Below are positions 2,923 to 18,765 of a stretch of DNA of 20,000 bases, piece by piece. A program made the position numbers and the translations under genes. Origin of the DNA: an uncultured virus (IMG/VR IMGVR_UViG_3300028888_000009). Taxonomy: Duplodnaviria > Heunggongvirae > Uroviricota > Caudoviricetes. Location of the stretch: IMG/VR virus record IMGVR_UViG_3300028888_000009, one strand, 5' to 3'. How positions within the stretch are numbered: the stretch's first letter is position 1; every line of letters begins with the position of its first letter. Below the pieces are notes generated by a model. It searched no databases. It was not told the origin of the DNA and saw only the letters and a list, made by a program, of their open reading frames with translations.

Positions 2923-3417
2923 TTATTCTATTTCTTCTTCTATTTCTTCCTCCGCTTCTTCCTCTTTCGCTTCTATCGGTTCGGTAGGCTCAAGAACATC
3001 CTCAAAGTCGGGTCTACGGAAGATGCGAGCAATCAGCTTGATGATGTTGACTTTTTGCTTGATGCCCTTGTATTCTAAGTAGTTGTCGATGATGGACGAC
3101 AGCTCGATGATGCACACCACCGCCATGATGATGACCGACAGTAAGGGCAAGCCGAACACGCTGCCGAAGTTGATGCCAACAAGCGTTGCGATACTCAGCC
3201 AGCAGATATAGTCAACCAACTTGTTGAGACTTCTCCTCACGGCTCTTGACGGACGTATCTTCTCGCCTCGCTTTTTGGCTGCTGCGATACCGAATCTCAA
3301 ATCACCAAGGATTAGGATGACGGCCAGGATGAGAAACCACAGCATTTGCTGCCATCCTTCGATGAATGGCGACAGCACCGCCGCAGTGAAGCCTCCTATT
3401 ACATTTCTTTCGTTCAT
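2923..3417 (-). CDS. Phage holin (holin family 4-like)
   Basis: TM segments plus the signature 'GDLRFGIAAAKKRGEKIRPSRAVRRSLNKLVDY...IELSSIIDNY'. Acidic C-tail. AAGGAG precedes ATG 3417, and there is an alternative in-frame ATG at 3435. Confidence 0.8.
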   Translation of the reverse strand: MNERNVIGGFTAAVLSPFIEGWQQMLWFLILAVILILGDLRFGIAAAKKRGEKIRPSRAVRRSLNKLVDYICWLSIATLVGINFGSVFGLPLLSVIIMAVVCIIELSSIIDNYLEYKGIKQKVNIIKLIARIFRRPDFEDVLEPTEPIEAKEEEAEEEIEEEIE

Positions 3418-3435
3418 TGTCTTATCTCCTTTCAT

Positions 3436-4163: not shown

Positions 4164-4729
4164 GGTCTCGCCTCCCATCCGCTTGGCAGGTCGGCAGGCG
4201 ACCACACGTTGTTGTCGATGAGGCTGACGTAGTGTACGCCCTCGAAGGTTACCTTGTCGCCGATGTTGTAGGCGTCTTGCGCCCCTTGCGGCTGCACCCA
4301 TTGCGGCCATTCCTCTATGCTCACCTCCACGAAGAGGCTCACGGCGGTGTCTGGCGTCCAATCTTCTTGAACGGTGTGCGCTTGGATGACCTTCCACAGC
4401 TTGCCGTCGTACCAGTAACGCTCGCCCACGTTGACGGATTGCCCCATCTTCGACACCCACGTCGGGAACAAGGCCGCGACGTTGAGCGCGTCCTCGTCGC
4501 TGAGGCTCTCGGTGCTGTTTGCCAGCATCCGCTTCACGGCTTCCATGACTTCGCCCATGTCGGGGTCGGTCTGCGGCTGCGGAGGGATTACGGGCGGCAC
4601 ATAGGGAAGCCACCCAGCGGCTGCTATCTGCTCCTCGCTGGGGTTGGAGATCCACACGCCCTCGTTGGTTTGGATGGTGCGGCAGTCCGAAAAGACCTGC
4701 CTGTCGCCTATCATTTTGTAGTACATCAT
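4160..4729 (-). CDS. Carbohydrate-binding (CBM5/12, chitin-binding type 3-like) domain protein
   Basis: Two aromatic repeats: VGERYWYDGKLWKVIQAHTVQEDWTP and YNIGDKVTFEGVHYVSLIDNNVWSP...W. High GC (41/60 in 4441-4500). Confidence 0.7.
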   Translation of the reverse strand: MMYYKMIGDRQVFSDCRTIQTNEGVWISNPSEEQIAAAGWLPYVPPVIPPQPQTDPDMGEVMEAVKRMLANSTESLSDEDALNVAALFPTWVSKMGQSVNVGERYWYDGKLWKVIQAHTVQEDWTPDTAVSLFVEVSIEEWPQWVQPQGAQDAYNIGDKVTFEGVHYVSLIDNNVWSPADLPSGWEARP

Positions 4730-4745
4730 ATCTCGGTCTCCTTTC

Positions 4746-6347
4746 TTAGTTTTCGATTATTGTGGCGAGGCCGTCCATGACGCTGACCTCGTATGACTTG
4801 CTTGCGTTGATTGTCGGTGCTGAGCCGCCAGCCCACGAAGTGATTGCGCTCGGCCATGTGATGGTTGGTGCGGTCGCTGGTGTCGTGAAAGTCCAGCAGT
4901 AGACGTGCGCCACCGTCAAATCGGTAGGCGTGTTCAAGGCTGGGAAGGTGGTGTCGCCGCTCAGCGTGCCGTACTGGTAGACCTTGTCGGCATCCATAGA
5001 TGCTGGGATGGTCGAGGCATCCACCACTGGAATTGGTGTTGCGAAGTCGCTTGCCTTCTTACCGCTGTCCGTGAGGTTGCCGTCGGAGTCAAGACCTGCG
5101 AGGTTGCCCGAGGTCGCTCCACCAACCTTGTCAGCCTTATTTTCAAGCAAATCATCAAAGGCTTGTCCGTTAGGACATAACGACACATATCTCCAATTTT
5201 GCGTATTTTCGTTCCACGAAAAAACAACGACATATCCGTCGACTTCGTAGTTGTTGAAGTTTACATACCTGCCGTTAGTTGTTGCGATGTAGAAATAGCG
5301 GTGGTCATCTCCGAATGTTGGTGAGTCTTGCGGTCTAACAATGCCTCCATAGAGGCATCCGTCTGCAAACATGGTCGAAAGAATGACATACATACCCCCG
5401 CTCTGTACGGGGTTTGTGCTGTTCTCGGTCGGTATCGCGTCTATCGTCAGCTCTGTCTGCAACCCGAGTTGCGCAGCAGTCTTGTTGCCACTCAGCGTGA
5501 CATTGTTGATTGACGGCTTGTTTGTAAGGTCATTATAGTTGGAAGTTCCACCTCCGCCTCCACTTTGGTTTACCCATTCAAGGTCATTGTCGGTATTGCT
5601 TTTCTTCGCAAGGACTTGCCCTGTCGTACCACCAGCAGGAACCATCTCCGCTTTCGTTGCGAGTTTGTTGGAAGAAGAAGCGTTGGAAGGTATCTTGTCT
5701 TCAATGGCCTTGCCTCTGTCACCAGGGAATGCCGTTGATGAGGTCTCGCCAAGAGCAAGGCTCTGCGAAATCTCAACGTAAGCACTGCCACTCCAACGAT
5801 AGGTCTTGTTGGTGTCAAGTGCCACATATATCTTACCGCTCTCCCCAGTGGCAGGGAACGAGGCGAGATTTGCATATTCCAGAACGTCGTCAACGTATGA
5901 AGGCAACTGCGACTGAGGAACCTTGCCCCCGCTATCGAGAGTTGCAACACCACCATTTGCACCTTTATCTGTGTCAGGAATAGCACCTACCTCACTTGCT
6001 GTATAGACTGGCTTTGTCTGAGCCTTAGCCCATGAAGGCACCGTTGGGTCGGTCTCGGTCTGCACGGCTGTATCTGCCTTACCCAAAGATGTTTGTACGG
6101 CAGACGCGAGGTCGGTCTTCGGGATGCCGCCAGACGGCTTGGAGTAAGCATTTGCAACCTTTGCTTTCTCAGTGTTGTTGTAGTCATTAGTTGAAAGGCC
6201 TTTACCAGAAACCTTATCCACCTTTCTATCCACCTCGTCAACGATGTTGTTGAGTACGGTGTTCATCTTCGCGCCAGTGATTTCACGTTGATGGTTGGTG
6301 CGTATGTTGTTTGCTATCCAAGTCTTTATGTCGGTGTACCAGCTCAT
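4746..6347 (-). CDS. Tail/whisker fibre-like structural protein (mosaic)
   Basis: Contains fibre modules KVDKVSGKGLSTNDY, ETDPTVPSWAK, NGGVATLDSGGKVPQSQLPSYVDDVLEY, GGTTGQVLAKKS, YNDLTNKPSINNVTLSGNKT and GNLAGLDSDGNLTDSGKK. N-terminal IRTN..EITG motif. Confidence 0.7.
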   Translation of the reverse strand: MSWYTDIKTWIANNIRTNHQREITGAKMNTVLNNIVDEVDRKVDKVSGKGLSTNDYNNTEKAKVANAYSKPSGGIPKTDLASAVQTSLGKADTAVQTETDPTVPSWAKAQTKPVYTASEVGAIPDTDKGANGGVATLDSGGKVPQSQLPSYVDDVLEYANLASFPATGESGKIYVALDTNKTYRWSGSAYVEISQSLALGETSSTAFPGDRGKAIEDKIPSNASSSNKLATKAEMVPAGGTTGQVLAKKSNTDNDLEWVNQSGGGGGTSNYNDLTNKPSINNVTLSGNKTAAQLGLQTELTIDAIPTENSTNPVQSGGMYVILSTMFADGCLYGGIVRPQDSPTFGDDHRYFYIATTNGRYVNFNNYEVDGYVVVFSWNENTQNWRYVSLCPNGQAFDDLLENKADKVGGATSGNLAGLDSDGNLTDSGKKASDFATPIPVVDASTIPASMDADKVYQYGTLSGDTTFPALNTPTDLTVAHVYCWTFTTPATAPTITWPSAITSWAGGSAPTINASKSYEVSVMDGLATIIEN

Positions 6348-8727: not shown

Positions 8728-9360
8728 TTAGCCATTGTTGGCGGTTGTGGTAGCGGTCACGGGGATACGGGCAGCAAGCGCTGCAATCTGCTGTTGCAGA
8801 AGGGCAATTTGGCCGTTGATGGTGTTGGTCTGAGCCTGGTCACGCAACTGGTTGATGATGTCGTTCTTGGCATCAATCTGCTGCTGCATCTCACGCTCCC
8901 TGATTTGGCAGAAGCCGTCGTTCATTGCCACGGTCTGGTTCTTGATCTCCGAGACGATCTCGTTGGTCTGTTGGCAGGTGGCAAGACGGTTCTCGCAGCA
9001 GCACTGGGAGAGCTGTTGGCTCATGGCAGCGTTGCCTGCTTGGATAGCGTTGGTCACTTGCAGCGGGTTAGTGGCGTTGCTGATGGCGATGTTGCCAAGC
9101 GTGGAGTTGATGCCAGCCACTTGCATGCCGACATTGCCGACAGCGTTCATGATAAGGTCAGCGTTGTTGTTGGCAGTGGCCTGTGCGCCGAGGGCAGCAG
9201 CAGCGGCATTGCCATTGCCATTGCCACCCCAACCGCCGAAGCCGCCACCGAACAAAGCACCACCGAGGATACCGCCAAGGAAGCCAGGGACGATGCCGCC
9301 CCAACCACCATAGCCGTAGCCACCGTTACCATCGAAATTGTAAACTTGAGGTTGTTCCAT
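8728..9360 (-). CDS. Gly-rich/coiled-coil 'QCCC' protein (glycine-zipper N-terminus)
   Basis: Start MEQPQ (ATG 9360). Contains GGWGGIVPGFLGGILGGALFGGGFGGWGG, Asn/Gln/Ala-rich heptads and LSQCCCENRLATC. Confidence 0.75.
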   Translation of the reverse strand: MEQPQVYNFDGNGGYGYGGWGGIVPGFLGGILGGALFGGGFGGWGGNGNGNAAAAALGAQATANNNADLIMNAVGNVGMQVAGINSTLGNIAISNATNPLQVTNAIQAGNAAMSQQLSQCCCENRLATCQQTNEIVSEIKNQTVAMNDGFCQIREREMQQQIDAKNDIINQLRDQAQTNTINGQIALLQQQIAALAARIPVTATTTANNG

Positions 9361-9394
9361 AGTATTTCGGTTTTTCGTTAATAAATAAGGTTGC

Positions 9395-9447
9395 GCAAAG
9401 ATGCACAACCTTACATGCTTTCAATCCGTAAAAACTCCGAAACGAAA
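9395..9447 (-). promoter_or_regulatory. Putative phage late promoter, copy 1
   Basis: Minus strand TTTCGTTTCGGAGTTTTTACGGATT...GTTGTGCATCTTTGC. Ungapped match of 38/53 nt to 14767-14819. CAnnTTTG resembles the Bacteroidetes -7 element TAnnTTTG. Confidence 0.65.
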
Positions 9448-9456
9448 CTGTGTATT

Positions 9457-10002
9457 TTACTCCACAGGAGGATGATGTATTATCTCGGTAATACCACGAT
9501 AACTACTACCTCCACTATATCCTGTCAGCTGTATGTATGCTTGGTAGTCAACTTTCCCTAAGTTCTGAGAAGTATAGACCGACACATAAACCAAATACCT
9601 CCCGCTTTGACCAGGGTCTCCCGTAGGTTCCATCTGACCCGACCAATCCGCAAAGTCATGATTCCCATTGTGAACGTAATACACCCTCGTTATCTCAAAC
9701 CTGCTTGCATCCGTTCCTCCAACCTCAACCTCAAGGTACTTGCTATTGGTATAGAATGCAACAGACAATCCAACTTCATGGCTCTGCAACTCTGCCTCGT
9801 CCTGCAAGGCTTGTACAAACTCTTGCCCGTTTTGGTTGACTTGCAGATAAGCCTGCCCGCCGTGATCGCCTTCTATGTCAAACTCCTTGTTCCTATTATT
9901 ACGCCCAAAGTATTCGGCATTGATGGACACACTCAATAGGCCGTCGCCAGATGTATCATTGTGGTCGTCAATGACAACAAAATCGTAAACCGTACTACTC
10001 AT
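9457..10002 (-). CDS. BACON-like (Ig-fold) protein, paralog of 10015-10695; putative fibre tip/cap
   Basis: Shares DDH..TSG.G, Y.GR..R, TNS and DPG motifs with the upstream gene but lacks its C-terminal half-domain. Confidence 0.6.
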   Translation of the reverse strand: MSSTVYDFVVIDDHNDTSGDGLLSVSINAEYFGRNNRNKEFDIEGDHGGQAYLQVNQNGQEFVQALQDEAELQSHEVGLSVAFYTNSKYLEVEVGGTDASRFEITRVYYVHNGNHDFADWSGQMEPTGDPGQSGRYLVYVSVYTSQNLGKVDYQAYIQLTGYSGGSSYRGITEIIHHPPVE

Positions 10003-10014
10003 AGAACATCCTCC

Positions 10015-10695
10015 TTAATGTACGTTGACTTCCCAATTGTCGTTTGACAATACATCCACATCAACACTGGCCTGCCCATCGCTATACCCAGCGGCACTGA
10101 AAGTGATTATCTTTGACGACGTTCCTTCATCGTCGAGCCATAGATAACTATCTCCAGCAGCTTGTATGATATTGCAAGAACCGGTCACACCCTGTGAGCC
10201 AGTAGCCATCAAAGTGCAGTATCTTGAGTTCATGGTTGCGTTAGCAGCTATGGTAACGACTATGGTAAAAGCAATCTCCTGCGTGGCACCAGGGTCATTT
10301 GCAAACGTCTGGCCACTCACGGATTGGTTGCCTATAGTCTGACCTCCGAAGTTAATGCTGAAATAAGTCGGCAATGTGCCGATGCTATCAGCATCCACCG
10401 TCAAGGCAAAGTCAAGTCGTGGCGAGTTTGTCTTACCAGTAATGGTAATCTGACCTCCTGCCGCCGTTGCTTGGTACGACGCTTGGTTGAACTGCACATA
10501 TTCTGGTTTAGGTAATTGGATAAACTCCACAGTTGCCGTCTTCGGATTTGTTTCAATGGTTGTAATTGTGGTGTAGCCAGTTCGCTGCAAACGGCCTTTG
10601 TAGACTCCCTGACAGATATGCGTTACATAGCCGTTACCGCTTGTCGCTCCGTGGTCGTCTACAGTCATCCAAGATACATCGGTATAGATTGACAT
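10015..10695 (-). CDS. BACON-domain protein with split (circularly permuted) terminal domain
   Basis: N-terminus SWMTV..GATSGNG..KGRLQRTGYTTI..TVEFIQ matches a BACON C-half. A central full domain ends AAN..SR..TL...IIQ. C-terminus YLWLD..ITFSAAG..VDVDVLSNDNWEV matches a BACON N-half. Confidence 0.7.
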   Translation of the reverse strand: MSIYTDVSWMTVDDHGATSGNGYVTHICQGVYKGRLQRTGYTTITTIETNPKTATVEFIQLPKPEYVQFNQASYQATAAGGQITITGKTNSPRLDFALTVDADSIGTLPTYFSINFGGQTIGNQSVSGQTFANDPGATQEIAFTIVVTIAANATMNSRYCTLMATGSQGVTGSCNIIQAAGDSYLWLDDEGTSSKIITFSAAGYSDGQASVDVDVLSNDNWEVNVH

Positions 10696-10708
10696 GTTTT
10701 TTTTCTCC

Positions 10709-11569
10709 TTATTGTTGTTGGTTGAATCTCTCTCCGATAGGCGGGTTCAGTCTCGCATAGTCGGGGTCGATGTAGAACGGCTGCACCGCCATGCGGTCGT
10801 ACAATGCTGCCTCCTGCGCCCTGCCGATGCCCCTAAGCACATTGGCCGTGATTTGGTTGAGGCAAGGATAACGCAAAGGCTCGCATATCTTCACATAGGC
10901 ACCATCGCCGTCACCGAACTTCTTCGGCTCGGGAACGTACTGGCCATACATCATCACCTCCACATTCGATGTGCATGAGTAAAGCTCAAGGAACGGATAA
11001 CCGCTCTGATGCACCAAGGCTCCAACAGGCTTCGTGTTGGTGCCACGAAGGTATCTGTTGGTCTGCTTGCGGTATTCTGCGCTGTCCTCGTTGACAACGG
11101 TCTGAATGGGTCGCTCCCAATCGCTCATCTGCAAGGTGATGAGGCGCAAGAAATCGCCAGGCAACGGCATGAGATACTTGTAACTCTGCATCTGCAACTG
11201 CCTATCTGGTTGCCCTTCGTTCACTTCCACTTCCCAACTCGTAACGGTACGCACAACCACGTTGATAGAGCCGCCCTCGGGAGGGAAGATGAGTGTCTGC
11301 GGATTCACATCAAGGACATTCACTTCCTCTCTGCCATACTCCGCAAACGGCTGGCATTTGTCGTCAAACAACTCACCATCCTTCAGCAACACGTTGGGCG
11401 AATCAAGGTGCATCTTGCGCACCGACGGAAGCACCGATGCCTCAATCTCCTTCTCCAAGTCCTCTACGGCTTGGTCTGAGGCCACAAGCATGGCATCCTC
11501 GTTGTTCGACAACTCGTCCAACTTGGCCTTCACATAATGGAATATGTCGCTGTAAGATAGTTGTGTCAT
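10709..11569 (-). CDS. Putative head-tail adaptor/connector protein with an inserted half-BACON segment
   Basis: Two genes downstream of the MCP. Helical N-terminus (VKAKLDE), LPGDFLRL..MSDWERP and RGT..KPV motifs, helical C-terminus. Internal LDVNPQTLIFPPEGGSINVVVRTVTSWEV. Confidence 0.55.
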   Translation of the reverse strand: MTQLSYSDIFHYVKAKLDELSNNEDAMLVASDQAVEDLEKEIEASVLPSVRKMHLDSPNVLLKDGELFDDKCQPFAEYGREEVNVLDVNPQTLIFPPEGGSINVVVRTVTSWEVEVNEGQPDRQLQMQSYKYLMPLPGDFLRLITLQMSDWERPIQTVVNEDSAEYRKQTNRYLRGTNTKPVGALVHQSGYPFLELYSCTSNVEVMMYGQYVPEPKKFGDGDGAYVKICEPLRYPCLNQITANVLRGIGRAQEAALYDRMAVQPFYIDPDYARLNPPIGERFNQQQ

Positions 11570-11575
11570 GGTTCT

Positions 11576-11965
11576 TTAGAGTTGTAGGTTGGGGAATGAC
11601 AAGCCAAGTTTGGCAATCTGCGCCTTCAATGCGTTGGGCGAGATGACGCTCTTCGGGTTGATGCTGTACTCCTTCTCCAAGAAGGCTCTCGCATCGGCAA
11701 GCGAAGTCACGTTGTCTGCCGTCAACTCGGGTTCTTCCACAGGCTCTTCGATTAGGATTTTGCTCTTGAGGAAGATGCGTTTGCCAAACATGGGCGAGTT
11801 CTCAATCACAAACTGCACCAAGGTGTCTTCCGTGTCGAGCGTGGCGTTCTCGTTGTCACGCATGTTGCCGTTCACGAAGTGGGCATCCACCATGATGTCG
11901 CCAAGGCGAATCGGGATTCTCGCTTCGTTGGCTCTTGTCATATAGGTCTTTCTGTAATGTGCCAT
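11576..11965 (-). CDS. Hypothetical head-associated protein
   Basis: 129-aa ORF immediately after the MCP terminator, with a C-terminal small helical domain (SLADARAFLEKEY...LGLSFPNL). Confidence 0.65.
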   Translation of the reverse strand: MAHYRKTYMTRANEARIPIRLGDIMVDAHFVNGNMRDNENATLDTEDTLVQFVIENSPMFGKRIFLKSKILIEEPVEEPELTADNVTSLADARAFLEKEYSINPKSVISPNALKAQIAKLGLSFPNLQL

Positions 11966-12043: not shown

Positions 12044-13765
12044 TTAGGCAGTGATGGCACCGCTGTATTTCTCCCATTTGGTCTCCTGAGCATTCCACTT
12101 GACGATGGTGCCAGCGGAGAAACCAGTACCGCCAGTGTTGTCGTCATCGGTCTCAAGGTACACCAACAGGCCGTCAGCCCAAGTGGTAGGTGCGCCAGTG
12201 GCACCACCACCGACATACATCTTCGGAGTGGTTGCGGCTTGGCCGTTACCATCGGTGGTGAGCTTGCTGAGGGTGTAGTACACAGCACCGACCTTCTTGT
12301 TGAAGGTGTAGATGTCGCTGCGGTTGTCGTACACGGTGTCGATACCCATAATCTTGTCGGCGGGGCCAACGAGGATGGAGTTGTAGCCGCGAAGCATAAC
12401 GCAGTCAATCTTGATGTAACGGTCGCGGTCGGCCTCAACGGGTTCCTTGCCGCCCTTGCTCAAGTCTTCCTTGCTCTTCTCACCGACATTGGGCTTCTTC
12501 CAGTAGTGGACAGCGTTCTTCATGTCTATGATCATGGCGCAGTTCTCATAACCCATTTCGTCAAGGATGGGGCAGAGCTTGAAGTTCAGCGTACCGAAGG
12601 TGGTCTTGAATTGGGTAATGTCAACACCATACTTGGTTTGGGTAGCCATCACGTTGGTTTGGGCAACCTTGGTGAAGTCAAGGTTAAGCAGCTGTTCGAT
12701 GAAACCATAGGAGCAGTACACCTCGGCCTCGTTGGAAGCACTCCACTTGCCAAACTGCATCTTCGACATGGCGATGATGTCCTTGTAGGTAATGGCATCT
12801 GTGGTCACATACTTCATAAGGAGTTGGGTGAGGACACCTTCCTCATAGTAGCAGTTCAAGTCGCCAAGGATGTCGTCGTGTTCGACCAGCATACCGCCAG
12901 CACCAACGAGTTTGGTACGCTCGTTCTCCTGACGGAAGGTCATCATGGCATTGTCGGCGATGTCGTCAGTGAAGTAAGGCACGTTCTTTTTCTTAACCTT
13001 CCACTCTTTCTCAATAGTGGTGTTCATGATTTTCTTCTGCAAGTTGGCATCAACGAACACGGGCGTTTGGTTCTTCGGGCTAACAACCAGCTGCGCGGTG
13101 TGGCAAGCGGTGGCCAGCATTTGGAACTTGGTGCCAGCGGGGATGGCATCGTGAATCACATGGGCAGTGCCGCTCCAATAACCGTTGACGGGAACGCAGA
13201 TGATACCATCGGAAGCACGGCCAACGACTTTCAGCATCAGTTCGCCATCGGCAATGTTGTTGCTGTTGACGTACTTGTAGCCAGGAATGCCCTTGGCGAT
13301 GAAGGTCTGCGACTTGCCGAACATACGAGCGTTGGCGGCAGTCACGTTGTAACTCGAACCAGAGCCGATAGACAGGGTGATTTCAGTGGGCGTACCCGTA
13401 GCAGCAATGTTCTTGTTGTTAGTGCAGTCCATCAGAGGCGTAGCCATCGTCGGGTGCTTAACGGTGTAGTCCTTCACCTGCTTCTGACGAGCCAGTCTTT
13501 CAACGTCGGTCGAGAAGGTGTAGTTGAACGGGCGAAACTTGGTGACAAGTTCGTCGATCTCGTCGTCATTGATGTCGCTATCTTTGACGACCTTTTCGGT
13601 AGCAGGCGTACCCGTAAGGTCGGTGTTCAAGTCCTTAGTATCGGGGTCAGCCGGGCGGTCAATAGGCTCGTTGTCGCCAACGGCAACAGCAGCCATCGAG
13701 AGGTCGGCACCGAAAGCCAGTGCCAACATGGTCAGCATGAAGCTGAGTAGTCTGAATTTCTTCAT
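12044..13765 (-). CDS. Major capsid protein (HK97-fold presumed) with N-terminal hydrophobic leader and C-terminal extension
   Basis: Largest gene after the scaffold, with strong codon bias and a downstream terminator. Motifs FRPFNYTFSTD, ENERTKLVG, YYEEGVL, FKTTFGTLNF and CAMIID. Start MKKFRLL at ATG 13765 with an A-rich leader. Confidence 0.75.
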   Translation of the reverse strand: MKKFRLLSFMLTMLALAFGADLSMAAVAVGDNEPIDRPADPDTKDLNTDLTGTPATEKVVKDSDINDDEIDELVTKFRPFNYTFSTDVERLARQKQVKDYTVKHPTMATPLMDCTNNKNIAATGTPTEITLSIGSGSSYNVTAANARMFGKSQTFIAKGIPGYKYVNSNNIADGELMLKVVGRASDGIICVPVNGYWSGTAHVIHDAIPAGTKFQMLATACHTAQLVVSPKNQTPVFVDANLQKKIMNTTIEKEWKVKKKNVPYFTDDIADNAMMTFRQENERTKLVGAGGMLVEHDDILGDLNCYYEEGVLTQLLMKYVTTDAITYKDIIAMSKMQFGKWSASNEAEVYCSYGFIEQLLNLDFTKVAQTNVMATQTKYGVDITQFKTTFGTLNFKLCPILDEMGYENCAMIIDMKNAVHYWKKPNVGEKSKEDLSKGGKEPVEADRDRYIKIDCVMLRGYNSILVGPADKIMGIDTVYDNRSDIYTFNKKVGAVYYTLSKLTTDGNGQAATTPKMYVGGGATGAPTTWADGLLVYLETDDDNTGGTGFSAGTIVKWNAQETKWEKYSGAITA

Positions 13766-13797
13766 TTCTCTTTTATTTTGTGTTAGTAATTGAGTTC

Positions 13798-14733
13798 TCA
13801 TTCGTCAAATTCCATGTCTTCGTTACGGAAGGGGTTGCGCACCACCTTCTTGTTCTTCGGTTTCGGCTCGGGTGCCGTGCCGCCTTGTCCTCCGTCAAAG
13901 GTGGGAGGCAGGCCTTGCGGAGCCTTGCCTTTTGCCAAGGTAGCCTGCACCTTGGCGTTGTGTCCTTTCAGTTCACCCTCTTGTCTTGCATTCTCCACAT
14001 CGGCATCGTGGGTGGCTGCTTTTCTCATCATGTCAAACAGCTTGTCGCTGTACTTGCCTTTAAGTCCGTCCGTGTAGAAGTCGTTCATCTGCTGCCACAT
14101 CGCCGCCATCTCTTCCTCTCCGATGTCGTTCTTCTCACAATACTTTGAGAAGCGGCTGATGGTCTCCTTGATGTTGTTCTCGCCTTCCTCGCGGAGTTTC
14201 TTGCTCTCCTCCTGCCCTTTCAGGTAGTTGGTGTACGACTCCGACAGTTTCTTCGACTTCTCGGGGTCGTCGTAGGCTGCAAGGATGTCCTCTTTCGAGA
14301 ATCTTCCAAGCAGGCTCTCAAAGAAGTCCTTGCCGTCTGCCACATCAAGGAACATCCCACCAAACTGCGGATGCTCGCTGATGACCTTGCGGAAGTCGTC
14401 GTCGCTCTTCTTCAACTTGTCGTACTCCTTAGTGCGCTCGTTTTGACGCTTCCAGAACAATTCCTCGTCCGCTTCATCGTCATCCGGATAGTCCTTCTTG
14501 TGACGCTCATAGAACAAGTCCTTCTGCGATTTCTCCTTCTTCTCCTCCTTCGGCTCGTCCTTTTTCTCAGTCTCTTTCTTCTCGGTGTCAGCCTTCTCGG
14601 TTTTCACCTCGTTCTTTTGGGTGTTTTCGGTTGCCGTGTTGGTGGTCTGGGTGCCGCCACCTTCGTTGGTGGTTGCGCTGCCCGATGCACCATTTGCAGT
14701 TGCCGTTGCGCCCGTTGATGATGTACCTTCCAT
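13798..14733 (-). CDS. Capsid scaffolding-like protein
   Basis: Start MEGTSS (ATG 14733). Low-complexity T/G/E/K N-terminus and a highly charged helical body with ARQEGELKGHNAK. Directly upstream of the MCP. Confidence 0.65.
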   Translation of the reverse strand: MEGTSSTGATATANGASGSATTNEGGGTQTTNTATENTQKNEVKTEKADTEKKETEKKDEPKEEKKEKSQKDLFYERHKKDYPDDDEADEELFWKRQNERTKEYDKLKKSDDDFRKVISEHPQFGGMFLDVADGKDFFESLLGRFSKEDILAAYDDPEKSKKLSESYTNYLKGQEESKKLREEGENNIKETISRFSKYCEKNDIGEEEMAAMWQQMNDFYTDGLKGKYSDKLFDMMRKAATHDADVENARQEGELKGHNAKVQATLAKGKAPQGLPPTFDGGQGGTAPEPKPKNKKVVRNPFRNEDMEFDE

Positions 14734-15382: not shown

Positions 15383-15999
15383 AAGACTGGATTGGAAACG
15401 GAAACTCCATCTTCAAGACCTTGGGCGCATCCAACCACACTGACAAGGAGCGTGAGGCACAAGACTACTACGCCACCGACCCGATAGCGATTGACAAACT
15501 CGCCGCCGTGTACGATATTCCACATTATATATGGGAACCTGCCTGTGGTGAAGGACATTTAGCGAAAAGGTTAAAAGAATTAGGCCACGGAGTTATTAGC
15601 ACTGATTTATTTGATAGAGGTTATGGGCTTGATGGAGTTGACTTCTTGAAAAAAAACGATGTTCCTTTTGCCGCCCATGTTACAAAATGGGCAATCCTCA
15701 CCAATCCACCTTACAAGTATGCAACCGAATTTGTTTTACAAGCCTTGCAATTACTACCCAAAGGCGCACCCTGCATCATGCTATTGAAGACAACAGCATT
15801 GGAGGGCAAAGGCCGTTGGGAAAGGCTTTACAGCAAAGGCTACCTGAAAGCCGTGTACCAGTTCAGCGAGCGGCTGCTATGCGCCAAGAACGGTGACTTT
15901 GAGGGTATGAAGGCAGGCGGTGGCAGTGCCGTGTCCTACGCATGGTTCATCTTCGCCAACGACGGAAAGAACGACCCACCGAAAATCTATTGGATATGA
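15379..15999 (+). CDS. Orphan amino-DNA methyltransferase (N6-adenine/N4-cytosine, NPPY)
   Basis: DYYAT, SAM-binding IWEPACGEGH, STDL and catalytic ILTNPPY motifs, plus YAWFIF. No cognate restriction enzyme adjacent. Confidence 0.85.
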   Translation: MKDWIGNGNSIFKTLGASNHTDKEREAQDYYATDPIAIDKLAAVYDIPHYIWEPACGEGHLAKRLKELGHGVISTDLFDRGYGLDGVDFLKKNDVPFAAHVTKWAILTNPPYKYATEFVLQALQLLPKGAPCIMLLKTTALEGKGRWERLYSKGYLKAVYQFSERLLCAKNGDFEGMKAGGGSAVSYAWFIFANDGKNDPPKIYWI

Positions 16000-16490
16000 A
16001 GCATAACACAACCATATTATATATTATCGTATTAGCCTGCGCCTTCTTCGGCCTCAATGCCGAATGGGGCTACATGGCAGGCTCTCCGTGGTGGTCGCAC
16101 CTCACCTTCCACTTCGCCCACGGCAACATCTTCCACCTTGCCGCCAACCTCCTTGTCGCGTTTCTGCTTCTGCTCAACCGCAAAGACCCTTGGTGGCTGT
16201 GGCCAGTGTGCTATGCCGTGGCTACGCTTTGCTCCTTCTGCATCGCAACGAACAAGCCTACGGTGGGATTGTCTGGCCTGCTCCTCGCCTACTACGGCAT
16301 CATATGCTACAAAGACGGAGCAAAGTGGCGTTCCATGCTCTACACCTTGGGTTATATGGTGGTGTCGTGCCTCTTCGCCTCACGCCTCGCAATAGGATTG
16401 CATTTTATGTGCTTCGCCATCGGTGCCGCCATCGGCGGAGTGATGCTGTGGCTATCCAACATAGAGAGAAAGGAGAAGATGTATGGCTAA
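15996..16490 (+). CDS. Rhomboid-family intramembrane serine protease
   Basis: Start MKHNTT (ATG 15996, ATGA overlap). About six hydrophobic segments, HFAHGNIFHLAAN (HxxxxHxxxN), catalytic GLSG (GxSG) and catalytic His in IGLHFMCFAIG. Confidence 0.85.
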   Translation: MKHNTTILYIIVLACAFFGLNAEWGYMAGSPWWSHLTFHFAHGNIFHLAANLLVAFLLLLNRKDPWWLWPVCYAVATLCSFCIATNKPTVGLSGLLLAYYGIICYKDGAKWRSMLYTLGYMVVSCLFASRLAIGLHFMCFAIGAAIGGVMLWLSNIERKEKMYG

Positions 16491-18765
16491 CAAGACAAGC
16501 GATTTAGACCTTGAGGTGCAGGCGATGTGCGACGAGAACCGCCGCCGTATGCGCTACCTCCAAGCCGACTACGACCCCATCACGGGCGAAGGACTTGAAC
16601 TGCGCGACCCAAAGACCAACGAGAACCTGCACTACCGCAAGCGCATCGAGATACCCGACCATATCATCCCAGTCCAATGGCTTACCCTTGAAACAAGGCG
16701 CAATAACCTCTACAAGCAGGTGATTGAATGCGGCAGCATAGCCAAATACATTGAGAAGGTGCTGGACGAAGACCCCGAAGACGAGGAAATCATCCAAATG
16801 ATACAACGCTCCCTCGTTGAGATACGCTACCGTTTCGACTTCCCTCATTGGGCTTACATGAACTGGCGTGTCAAGGACAAACGAGGTATTGACGAGAGTG
16901 TGGTGCTGACCGAGGAAGAAGCCGAGCGCATCAAAGCCTCACGCATCGAAAGCGACGACTCTTCCCTTATCCCCTTCAAACTCAACCGCGCACAACTCGA
17001 CCTTGAAGCAGGTGTGGAGTCGCAACGTGTCAAAGGTCTACCCATCCGCATCATCTTCGCCAAGAACCGCCAATGCGGTGGCTCTACCTATGCCGAAGCG
17101 AAACTGGCTTGGATTCAGCTCTGCCACAAGAACGGATGGAACTCCGTCATCGTTGCGCAGGTGTCGGCTACAGCAAAGAAGATTCAGATGATGTACGAGA
17201 AAGCCATTGGCCACTACCCGCCTTGGCTACTTGGATTGCCCGACAACGAGCGGCTGCGCTTCTCGCAATATGGCCGTTCTGCCTCCGACTTCCGCATCAC
17301 CTACGGAACCACATCCAACCCACAGCCTGCCCGTGACGCGGTTATCTCCGTAGGCACATACAACAACCCCGACTCCCTGCCCGGTACGGATATGGCTCTC
17401 GCCCATATCTCCGAGTTGGCATTGTGGAAAAACACCGATGGCAAGTCACCCGAGGATTTGTTCAAGTCGGTGGCTGGTGGTATCATGAATATGCCGCTCA
17501 CCGCCATCATCATCGAAAGCACACCTCGTGGCAGCGGCAACTACTTCGCCGACGAATACGCAAGAGCCAAGTCGGGCAAGAGTGCCTACCTCGCCATGTT
17601 CATCAAACTGTCATCCAACCCCTACGACATTGAGCCTGTCAAGAGCCTCCGTGGTTTCATCCGTTGGATGATTGAGAACAAGAACAACCGCAACTGCCCC
17701 GAAGAGATATTTGGTCATAAGGGAAAGCCCTGCCGTGTGTCGGGTCAGTTCATCTGGAAGATGTGGGAGAACGGCTCCACCATTGAGAACATACATTGGT
17801 ATCTGCTCAAACACTTGGAGTTCAGCCGCCACTCCGATATGGCCTCCGAAGCACCCGTTGACGACATCGAAGCCTTTGCCAACACCGATTCGTTGGTGTT
17901 CGACATGTACGATGTGGATGCCTTGGAGAAGCAATGCGTCAAAGAGCCTATCAAGGTGGGCGACATCTACTCCGACTATACACTTGGCAAGGATACCTTG
18001 GAGAACTATGAGTTTGAGGAACGACCGGGCGGCACGATGAAGATTTGGGAAGAGCCTAACCCCGTCAAGATGACCAACCAATATATCGTGGTGGTGGATA
18101 TAGGCTACTTCTCTGCCAAGGCCGACTGGTCTATCATCCGTGTCGTTGACCGCTCCGAGGTGGCCAGCGGTGGCATGGAGAAGACTGTCTTGCTATGGCA
18201 TGGGCATATCCCCCACGATTACCTTGCATGGAAAGCCGTGCAGGTGGCCAAGTGGTACAACAACGCCCTGCTTGTCTTTGAGAGCAACACGCTTGAAAAG
18301 GAAAGGAACAGAGAAAACACGGTTGTAGTTGTTGACGACCTTGGCAACGAGTTGAACTACATCCTTGAAATCATAGACTACTGCTACGACAACACCTACC
18401 TACGCCGTGAGTCGCAGGCACAAGATGTGAATGGTGGTGGCGGCAAACTGGTTGTCGGTTTCCACACCAACAAGAAGACCAAGCCAGGCATCGTACGCAC
18501 CCTCGAAGCCGCCATCCGCGACAAGGACTTCATCGAACCCGACAAGGAGACCATTGAGGAGTTCCGTCACTACGAGCGCAAGCAGAACGGCTCATACGGA
18601 GCAATGGCAGGCTGCAAGGACGACCGCCTCATGACCATCGGCATTGCCTTATACATATCCCGCACCCTTGACGGAGGTCTGCCTGCACCAAGGCGCAAAG
18701 ACCTTCCGCAAGAGAAGGAGAAGCAACACGACTACCACAACACCCACGGAGAAGCATCATTCTAA
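16483..18765 (+). CDS. terL: Terminase large subunit
   Basis: FKLNRAQ (Q-motif), KNRQCGGST (Walker A, KxRQxGxST type), AHISE (Walker B), IIESTPRG (coupling motif), RNase H-like VVVDIG..ADWS and KDDRLM. Confidence 0.9.
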   Translation: MANKTSDLDLEVQAMCDENRRRMRYLQADYDPITGEGLELRDPKTNENLHYRKRIEIPDHIIPVQWLTLETRRNNLYKQVIECGSIAKYIEKVLDEDPEDEEIIQMIQRSLVEIRYRFDFPHWAYMNWRVKDKRGIDESVVLTEEEAERIKASRIESDDSSLIPFKLNRAQLDLEAGVESQRVKGLPIRIIFAKNRQCGGSTYAEAKLAWIQLCHKNGWNSVIVAQVSATAKKIQMMYEKAIGHYPPWLLGLPDNERLRFSQYGRSASDFRITYGTTSNPQPARDAVISVGTYNNPDSLPGTDMALAHISELALWKNTDGKSPEDLFKSVAGGIMNMPLTAIIIESTPRGSGNYFADEYARAKSGKSAYLAMFIKLSSNPYDIEPVKSLRGFIRWMIENKNNRNCPEEIFGHKGKPCRVSGQFIWKMWENGSTIENIHWYLLKHLEFSRHSDMASEAPVDDIEAFANTDSLVFDMYDVDALEKQCVKEPIKVGDIYSDYTLGKDTLENYEFEERPGGTMKIWEEPNPVKMTNQYIVVVDIGYFSAKADWSIIRVVDRSEVASGGMEKTVLLWHGHIPHDYLAWKAVQVAKWYNNALLVFESNTLEKERNRENTVVVVDDLGNELNYILEIIDYCYDNTYLRRESQAQDVNGGGGKLVVGFHTNKKTKPGIVRTLEAAIRDKDFIEPDKETIEEFRHYERKQNGSYGAMAGCKDDRLMTIGIALYISRTLDGGLPAPRRKDLPQEKEKQHDYHNTHGEASF

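Follow-up and report, generated by a model that had tools for sequence, protein, structure and literature searches.

Chaperone-usher pili are ordered, non-covalent chains in which the next subunit contributes what is missing from an incomplete Ig-like fold. BACON domains (PF13004, and PF19190, the 'Viral BACON domain') are known as whole domains within a single chain, whereas in the phage locus described here a domain of the same fold family is interrupted at one fixed loop, with its two halves carried by different proteins. The locus belongs to a stretch of 20,000 nucleotides from an uncultured virus (IMG/VR record IMGVR_UViG_3300028888_000009), which we call the window, and comprises three neighbouring open reading frames (ORFs), all on the minus strand, for proteins of 286 amino acids (aa; positions 10709-11569), 226 aa (10015-10695) and 181 aa (9457-10002). 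We refer to these proteins as the adaptor, the linker and the tip, and consider it reasonably probable that they form an ordered appendage of the virion neck in which adaptor, linker and tip are joined by two split BACON domains that are rebuilt between chains.

An earlier note on this DNA had compared the arrangement to a pilus. The likeness lies in an incomplete Ig-like fold which, as predicted here, is completed by the next subunit, and it holds as an analogy. Pili donate one strand, whereas here about half a sandwich of four to five strands would be exchanged, and Pfam and PHROG scans of the window ORFs revealed no chaperone or usher families; in these two respects the comparison fails. 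BACON domains occur as tandem repeats in the tail-region proteins of crAss-like phages, likewise beside the tail genes of gut phages, and the terms 'split' and 'permut' are absent from that report (PMC6949934). In the literature searched, BACON domains that are split or permuted were nowhere described. The nearest printed precedent that we found is the split nozzle of the Pseudomonas podophage A1002, where, according to the accessible part of the source (PMC13730344), gp39 supplies strands missing from gp42, so that a tail domain encoded by two genes is rebuilt between chains by beta-strand complementation. The A1002 nozzle has another fold (beta-propeller and platform) and belongs to a single phage, whereas the halves described here would serve as a reusable plug and socket and occur at consecutive gene boundaries in many lineages.

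In the following, A denotes the first half of the viral BACON domain (approximately positions 1-40 of PF19190; motif L.F.a.GG..v.V.SN..W.v) and B the second half (approximately positions 40-94; motif W.tv...G.GnG.v.v.....GR..R...i.v......v.Q). We speak of an A half as a socket and of a B half as a plug, and a protein ordered B, middle domain, A is called BmA. The protein families of the linker, the adaptor and the tip were aligned as A1, A2 and A3, respectively.

The linker is such a BmA protein. Residues 2-63 form plug 1 (10507-10692; matched by a B-half hidden Markov model, HMM, at residues 9-46, 1e-13), residues 64-182 a complete BACON-like Ig domain (10150-10506; predicted local distance difference test, pLDDT, 91-98), and residues 183-226 socket 2 (10018-10149; A-half HMM at residues 184-223, 1e-13), whose WEVNV strand stops one residue short of the C-terminus. 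This layout, which the earlier note had read from the single sequence, is kept in 26 of 26 aligned homologues (53-86% identity, taken from 34 matches). The half-domain motifs are present in every row of A1, with W221 and N218 invariant, and residues preceding Met10 are conserved as well, which shows that the start at 10695 is right. For the middle domain (residues 65-181), the best structural match by VIA-align was the BACON domain of BoGH5A (3zmr_A residues 42-129; Z 9.1, root-mean-square deviation 2.2, 87 residues aligned); Caf1M:Caf1 (3dsn_A) appeared just as a general Ig-fold match with Z 8.7. A tblastn search of the linker against phage records retrieved the middle domain alone, in 4 records, and PHROGs holds no function for either the linker or the tip.

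The tip consists of B and one BACON-like domain and has no trailing A. Using hhalign, we aligned A1 with A3 over linker residues 8-179 and tip residues 7-177 (probability 97.7%, E 2e-12), and the tip is therefore a paralogue of the linker that lacks the trailing half, in agreement with the earlier note. Its plug 2 spans about residues 5-58 (9829-9990; B-half HMM at residues 11-47, 1e-07), and the two plugs resemble each other (37% identity over 30 residues, E 8e-4). Over the plug 2 stretch, the tip homologue P0111 passes the Pfam cut-off for BACON: its residues 20-57 match positions 24-60 of the 61 positions of PF13004 with 26.5 bits (cut-off 25). Because just three homologues of the tip were found, we regard it as the variable member of the trio.

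Relatives that pass the Pfam cut-offs point to BACON as the identity of the halves and also indicate where the cut lies. The N-terminus of P0125 (residues 5-54) matches positions 42-93 of the 94 positions of PF19190, the protein scoring 30.7 bits. In P0122, P0124 and P0134, two BmA units are fused in tandem, and here the internal A+B junction covers PF19190 positions 2 to 92 or 93 of 94 with 30-40 bits. Terminal and inserted segments, by comparison, are incomplete as BACON domains and cover about positions 40-94 when N-terminal and about positions 1-40 when C-terminal or inserted in the adaptor (described below).

Natural fusions place the trailing half of the linker directly next to the leading half of the tip. 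In the 428-aa protein encoded at locus L011, a tip-like unit comes after a linker-like unit, with A and B contiguous (...NDNWSVDL-PRVISIVNS-DWFRLDDHGDNSGDG...); the C-terminal part of this protein shares 36% identity with the 187-aa tip (E 4e-28). Similarly, P0113 is 61% identical to the linker over residues 1-217 and, in its residues 237-399, 36% identical to the window's tip (E 5e-29). The fused linker-tip layout of P0113 was also read from the sequences of P0114, P0116 and P0123 and, by the half-domain HMM scan only, assigned to P0115. The fusions L011 and P0113 thus indicate that the A half of the linker and the B half of the tip are the two halves of one ordinary BACON domain, which bears out the half-domain reading of the earlier note. 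The internal connection from A to B measures 4-19 residues, a length that matches the sum of the few residues trailing a terminal A and those that precede a terminal B. Several multi-BACON proteins (P0121, P0147, P0213 and L018 4396-6765) have in common a short C-terminal motif, GI.[EY]M.IE....F..., which may represent a further conserved docking peptide.

A search with the A1 profile retrieved 456 representatives at E<=1e-3, 199 of them at E<=1e-10. We scanned the 150 listed representatives (clustered at 50% identity) with half-domain HMMs made from the BmA family. B at the start was found in 135, A at the end in 110 and both in 102; 33 had the B start only, 8 the A end only and 7 neither. 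Among proteins of at least 600 aa, 13 of 19 have a B start and a middle domain that lead into a long fibre-like chain. In P0237 and P0251, the terminal A is unpaired and the N-terminus lacks a B.

The order of anchor, linker and tip genes that had been noted in the window recurs in many phage lineages. Within the lineage of the source phage, five distinct relatives keep the order adaptor with A, BmA, tip with B. In the crAss-like genome cr127_1, a 70-aa protein ending ...NVDIESNTNWTFND precedes a BmA gene, and in cr111_1 the BmA gene stands between the genes for a 126-aa protein with an A-like end, upstream, and a 99-aa protein with a B-like start, downstream. The two BmA proteins (cr127_1, L018 7001-7636; cr111_1, L019 1744-2373) are annotated as 'lipocalin-like protein, BACON binding domain' and a match in csAssE-Sib as 'glycosyl hydrolase family 5 protein'; these labels are misleading and probably derive from the BACON domain of glycosyl hydrolase family 5 enzymes.

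For a broader view, we analysed further viral loci, namely the best 80 of 198 relatives (L022-L101), with 90 BmA units; a related-locus search with P0125 as query returned no loci. At strict HMM thresholds, BmA stood alone in 53 of the 80 loci. Reading the neighbouring genes, we found small upstream genes that end ...SNT.W.I and downstream genes that start ...IPW..G.GN.... The A HMM reached at least 5 bits at the C-termini of 59 of 88 upstream ORFs, compared with 11 of 801 background ORFs, and the B HMM did so at the N-termini of 47 of 84 downstream ORFs, compared with 7 of 801. In the crossed controls, the B HMM matched none of the 88 upstream ends; the A HMM matched 24 of 84 downstream starts at 5-10 bits and none at 10 bits or above. 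BmA genes follow each other directly in 2 of the 80 loci and occur as BmA, A, BmA in 9. In L022-L101 (e.g., L030 4629-4961 and L034 4749-4961), the anchor is a protein of 45-156 aa (mostly 66-110 aa) that ends in an A half of some 30 residues (...YLRVTP....L.W......Y.V.SNT.WNI). The short N-terminal part of these small anchors must hold them on the virion.

The anchor in the window is a head-to-tail adaptor by its fold, a helix bundle with a beta domain resembling that of T7 gp11 or of crAss ring proteins. The AlphaFold2 model of the 286-aa protein (pLDDT 80.7) was matched by Foldseek to the phicrAss001 ring proteins and to the tail adaptors of Moo19, SU10, Carin-1, N4, DEV and T7, the top hits being the phicrAss001 tail barrel and the tails of Moo19, SU10 and T7. 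In VIA-align, rows 1-31 consisted entirely of adaptors from phage necks or tails (Z 10.3-5.0, 86-197 residues aligned), including cyanophage A4 at 10.3, GP4 and SU10 at 8.9 and T7 gp11 at 6.6, and unrelated folds appeared only from Z 4.8 or less. The two methods agree, and the description of the upstream protein as adaptor-like in the earlier note is thereby substantiated. The family phrog_22135 matches residues 135-256. The same helix-plus-beta-sandwich fold is described for the phicrAss001 ring in the accessible part of PMC10172136, and the beta-dock domain of podophage adaptors is, according to what is accessible of PMC13730344, the usual attachment site of fibres or collar proteins.

What distinguishes the 286-aa protein from the podovirus adaptors that share its fold (T7 gp11, SU10, Carin-1, GP4 and the phicrAss001 ring proteins) is half a BACON domain, inserted as an additional stretch of about 40-60 residues; the solved adaptors matched have 181-243 residues. 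This lone A, socket 1, occupies adaptor residues 84-121 (11207-11320), after the N-terminal helices (residues 6-56) and before the beta domain (from residue 127). Within it, residues 85-116 (VLDVNPQ...WEVEV) lie at 11222-11317, where the earlier note had placed an inserted first half. The assignment is consistent with three results. Firstly, hhalign of A1 against A2 gave a single match, which pairs linker residues 189-226 with adaptor residues 85-118 (E 5.8e-4). Secondly, an A-half HMM built without adaptor sequences recognised the insertions of the homologues P0064 (7.9e-12), P0073 (6.8e-6) and P0099 (1.3e-4), whereas the B-half HMM gave nothing better than 0.45 on adaptor insertions. Thirdly, the same residues form the interface in the complex model presented below.

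Socket 1 is the least confident part of the adaptor monomer model (pLDDT 56-71), and the insertion is missing from 9 of 27 aligned adaptor homologues, a count that does not represent a frequency because the 27 were picked from 71 matches so as to include short ones. The insertion, absent from these nine homologues and poorly ordered in the monomer model, is dispensable for the adaptor fold. Viral, metagenome and genome collections yielded no genomic context for these nine homologues, and the co-occurrence of socket and BmA genes can therefore be assessed in L005, Bacteroides phage BS-TP4 and L016. L005 and BS-TP4 have a socket-less adaptor and no BmA genes; L016 is discussed below.

To model the assembly, we used ESMFold2 with three chains (286, 226 and 181 aa), the alignments A2, A1 and A3, scoring the adaptor chain. 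The interface score ipSAE was 0.69, 0.01 and 0.67 in three runs (median 0.67), and three controls scored 0.00, 0.00 and 0.10; the model passed its mark. The confident interface joins adaptor residues 84-88 and 90-121 to linker residues 2-63, that is, the lone A of the adaptor to the B half of the linker. The expected error of this contact was 0.6-0.8 A in the best run, and the partner pLDDT was at least 73. Strand pairs form between linker residues 56-61 and adaptor residues 92-97 and between linker residues 22-28 and adaptor residues 100-106. In the control that scored 0.10, the linker was replaced and the tip, which also carries a B half, was still present; the model therefore does not seat just any B in the adaptor socket. 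In silico, then, the completion of the adaptor's half-domain by the linker, as the earlier note had proposed, is supported.

In BmA proteins, the two termini fall precisely at adjacent strands of the fold, as in a circular permutant, and the linker might close its own B and A within one chain, leaving the adaptor socket to the tip or empty. The monomer model of the linker (pLDDT 90.4 overall, predicted template modelling score 0.76) has pLDDT values of 73-94 at the termini, which could reflect such intramolecular pairing and is a point against completion between chains. Self-closure would, however, need the strands IITF, VDVDV and WEVNV, and most of these are missing from residues 190-226 of the monomer model: DSSP assigned no strand at 190-204 or 217-226, only single bridges at 205 and 208, and one short strand at 214-216. 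Moreover, in the three-chain model the linker B pairs with the adaptor rather than with the linker A, the adaptor score is just 0.10 with the tip as the sole source of B, the fusions set the linker A beside the tip B, and P0237 and P0251 have a terminal A with no B of their own to close on. L016 fits self-closure better: at 4255-5309, the gene for an insertion-less adaptor homologue of 228 aa precedes that for a protein that starts with B and whose C-terminus lies beyond the contig end. This breaks a strict co-occurrence of socket and plug, and other anchors must exist, with the socket on another protein. Taking these results together, we consider self-closure of the linker very unlikely.

Further points weigh against an appendage joined by rebuilt domains. 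Evidence for binding is wholly in silico, and a structure predictor may reassemble a memorised, familiar fold when given its two halves. Of the three complex runs, one failed, and because of this the stated agreement between runs is at least 0%. Among solved complexes, 116 of 157 attain the ipSAE mark, as do 2 of 215 mismatched pairs, counts which are only roughly valid for three chains and custom alignments. The reported interface covers the adaptor and its partner, and the linker-tip interface lies outside the score. On the insertion of the window's own adaptor, the A-half HMM gave just 0.01. The half-length terminal matches to BACON profiles anticipated in the earlier note were obtained with the relatives P0111 and P0125, but not with the window's own three proteins, for which Pfam gave no BACON match at E<=1. 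Lastly, the 80 loci are not independent, several being near-identical, and in the crossed control the A HMM also matched downstream starts, at 5-10 bits.

The purely computational evidence, the lack of a Pfam match in the window's own halves and the failed complex run leave room for a reading in which the halves never pair. They would then be what decay has left of a multi-BACON gene that broke up, or arms for binding something else, such as the portal, the capsid or the host surface. Against this stands the conservation of the cut: 102 of the 150 listed representatives are cut at the same loop, and the matching halves of the neighbouring genes occur far above background, features that decay would not conserve. 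Each gene also has its own ribosome-binding site, and the half motifs, including the two invariant residues, persist in all A1 rows. We therefore give the absence of pairing a small chance of being right.

The gene junctions show how the split is encoded. At the linker/tip junction (10003-10017, minus strand), the TAA stop of the linker gene is overlapped by an AGGAGG Shine-Dalgarno (SD) site, followed by a 12-nt spacer and ATG, and the tip gene thus forms a cistron of its own with a dedicated ribosome-binding site. At the adaptor/linker junction (10696-10708), the adaptor gene ends in TAA-GGAG, 13 nt from the ATG of the linker gene. These strong SD sites overlapping the preceding TAA stops suggest a host with SD-led initiation. 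The linker and tip genes lie in one frame in the window and its closest relatives. Read-through or recoding of the stop codon as the cause of the split was ruled out by the presence of a TAA stop and an SD site for each gene, and is also countered by the large genes of the window, which are open under table 11, and by linker/tip-type junctions in L013, L018 and L019, which are out of frame.

The earlier note had envisaged that the linker polymerises head to tail on the adaptor, giving a fibre of variable length that is capped by the tip. The linker does carry both a plug and a socket, its plug resembles that of the tip, and tandem BmA proteins (P0122, P0124 and P0134) together with the loci that have successive BmA genes make unit-to-unit joints possible. 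Polymerisation is not needed to account for the halves, however. In G002, a related genome that is complete (58.8 kb, with terminal repeats), the BmA profile matches the linker and the tip only, the adaptor socket is seen by alignment, and the detectable sockets and plugs number two each, as in the window; two sockets and two plugs fit a 1:1:1 chain. The ribosome-binding site of the tip (AGGAGG) is at least as strong as that of the linker (GGAG), giving no sign of an excess of shaft over cap, and the conservation of the trio pattern across lineages fits a chain of defined composition. A polymeric linker fibre therefore appears unlikely to us. A broader proposal is that phages of gut and rumen type share a general code for joining proteins, with pair-specific plugs and sockets made of half-BACON domains. 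The linker would also add to itself by exchange of whole half-domains, giving a non-covalent Ig fibre of variable length on the adaptor ring, and the supply of subunits would set its length and with it the reach of the tip; we regard this as improbable.

We thus return to the ordered appendage of adaptor, linker and tip, in which the genes lie in the order of assembly. As in podoviruses with solved structures, the adaptor would by analogy form a dodecameric ring under the portal and expose its lone A as a surface insertion at the start of the beta domain, where fibres dock. The N-terminal B of the linker is predicted by the model to plug into this socket and complete the beta sandwich. The C-terminal A of the linker would then offer a second socket, which would take up the N-terminal B of the tip. 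The product would be up to twelve whiskers, each a single file of four Ig-like domains in the order rebuilt BACON, middle domain, rebuilt BACON, tip domain, and the variable tip domain would likely be the end that contacts glycans or another surface.

The window as a whole is a late-gene region of an uncultured tailed phage, a podovirus-like member of a non-crAss lineage with an SU10-type capsid protein. It encodes a large terminase (16483-18765, plus strand; phrog_2), the SU10-type major capsid protein (12044-13801, minus strand; PF17236, E 1e-8) and a holin (2923-3435); a portal gene was not found in the window. Downstream of the capsid gene, small minus-strand genes lie in a run, with the adaptor gene just after the capsid genes. 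L006, a 68.6-kb metagenome contig, has an adaptor gene identical to that of the window. The only cultured distant relatives found infect Bacteroides.

Several neighbouring genes have features of their own. The capsid ORF (12044-13801, minus strand) and all its relatives (L002, L004, L005 and L016) start with a signal-peptide-like hydrophobic N-terminus (MKKFRLLSFMLTMLALAFGADLSMAA...), the likely true start in the window being the second Met, 12 codons into the ORF. Such an N-terminus is unusual for HK97/SU10-type capsid proteins and may represent a cleaved propeptide. Between the capsid and adaptor genes, a 129-aa protein (11576-11965, minus strand) is kept in every relative (L001-L016); it has a fixed C-terminal motif, SPNALK....G..FPN, and belongs to no Pfam or PHROGs family. 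Right after the tip gene, 8728-9408 (minus strand) encodes a glycine-rich protein of 226 aa (GGYGYGGWGG..., then a Q/N-rich coiled segment; phrog_16490), which may act in ejection or on membranes. Immediately upstream of the terminase lies a gene for a rhomboid-like membrane protein (15942-16490, plus strand; PF01694, 22.6 bits, at the cut-off), and a 'rhomboid domain-containing protein' is annotated at a similar position in Bacteroides phage BS-TP4.

If the two halves do reconstitute a domain, hundreds of uncultured phages would use a natural split-domain connector that puts exchangeable tips on a conserved anchor, which in the phage described here would be the head-to-tail adaptor itself. 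This would explain why many small 'hypothetical' genes of tail modules start or stop in the middle of a domain, and it would provide a rule by which contacts between virion proteins and their order can be predicted from sequence alone. The paired halves would also supply small connectors that join proteins non-covalently and may be orthogonal to one another.

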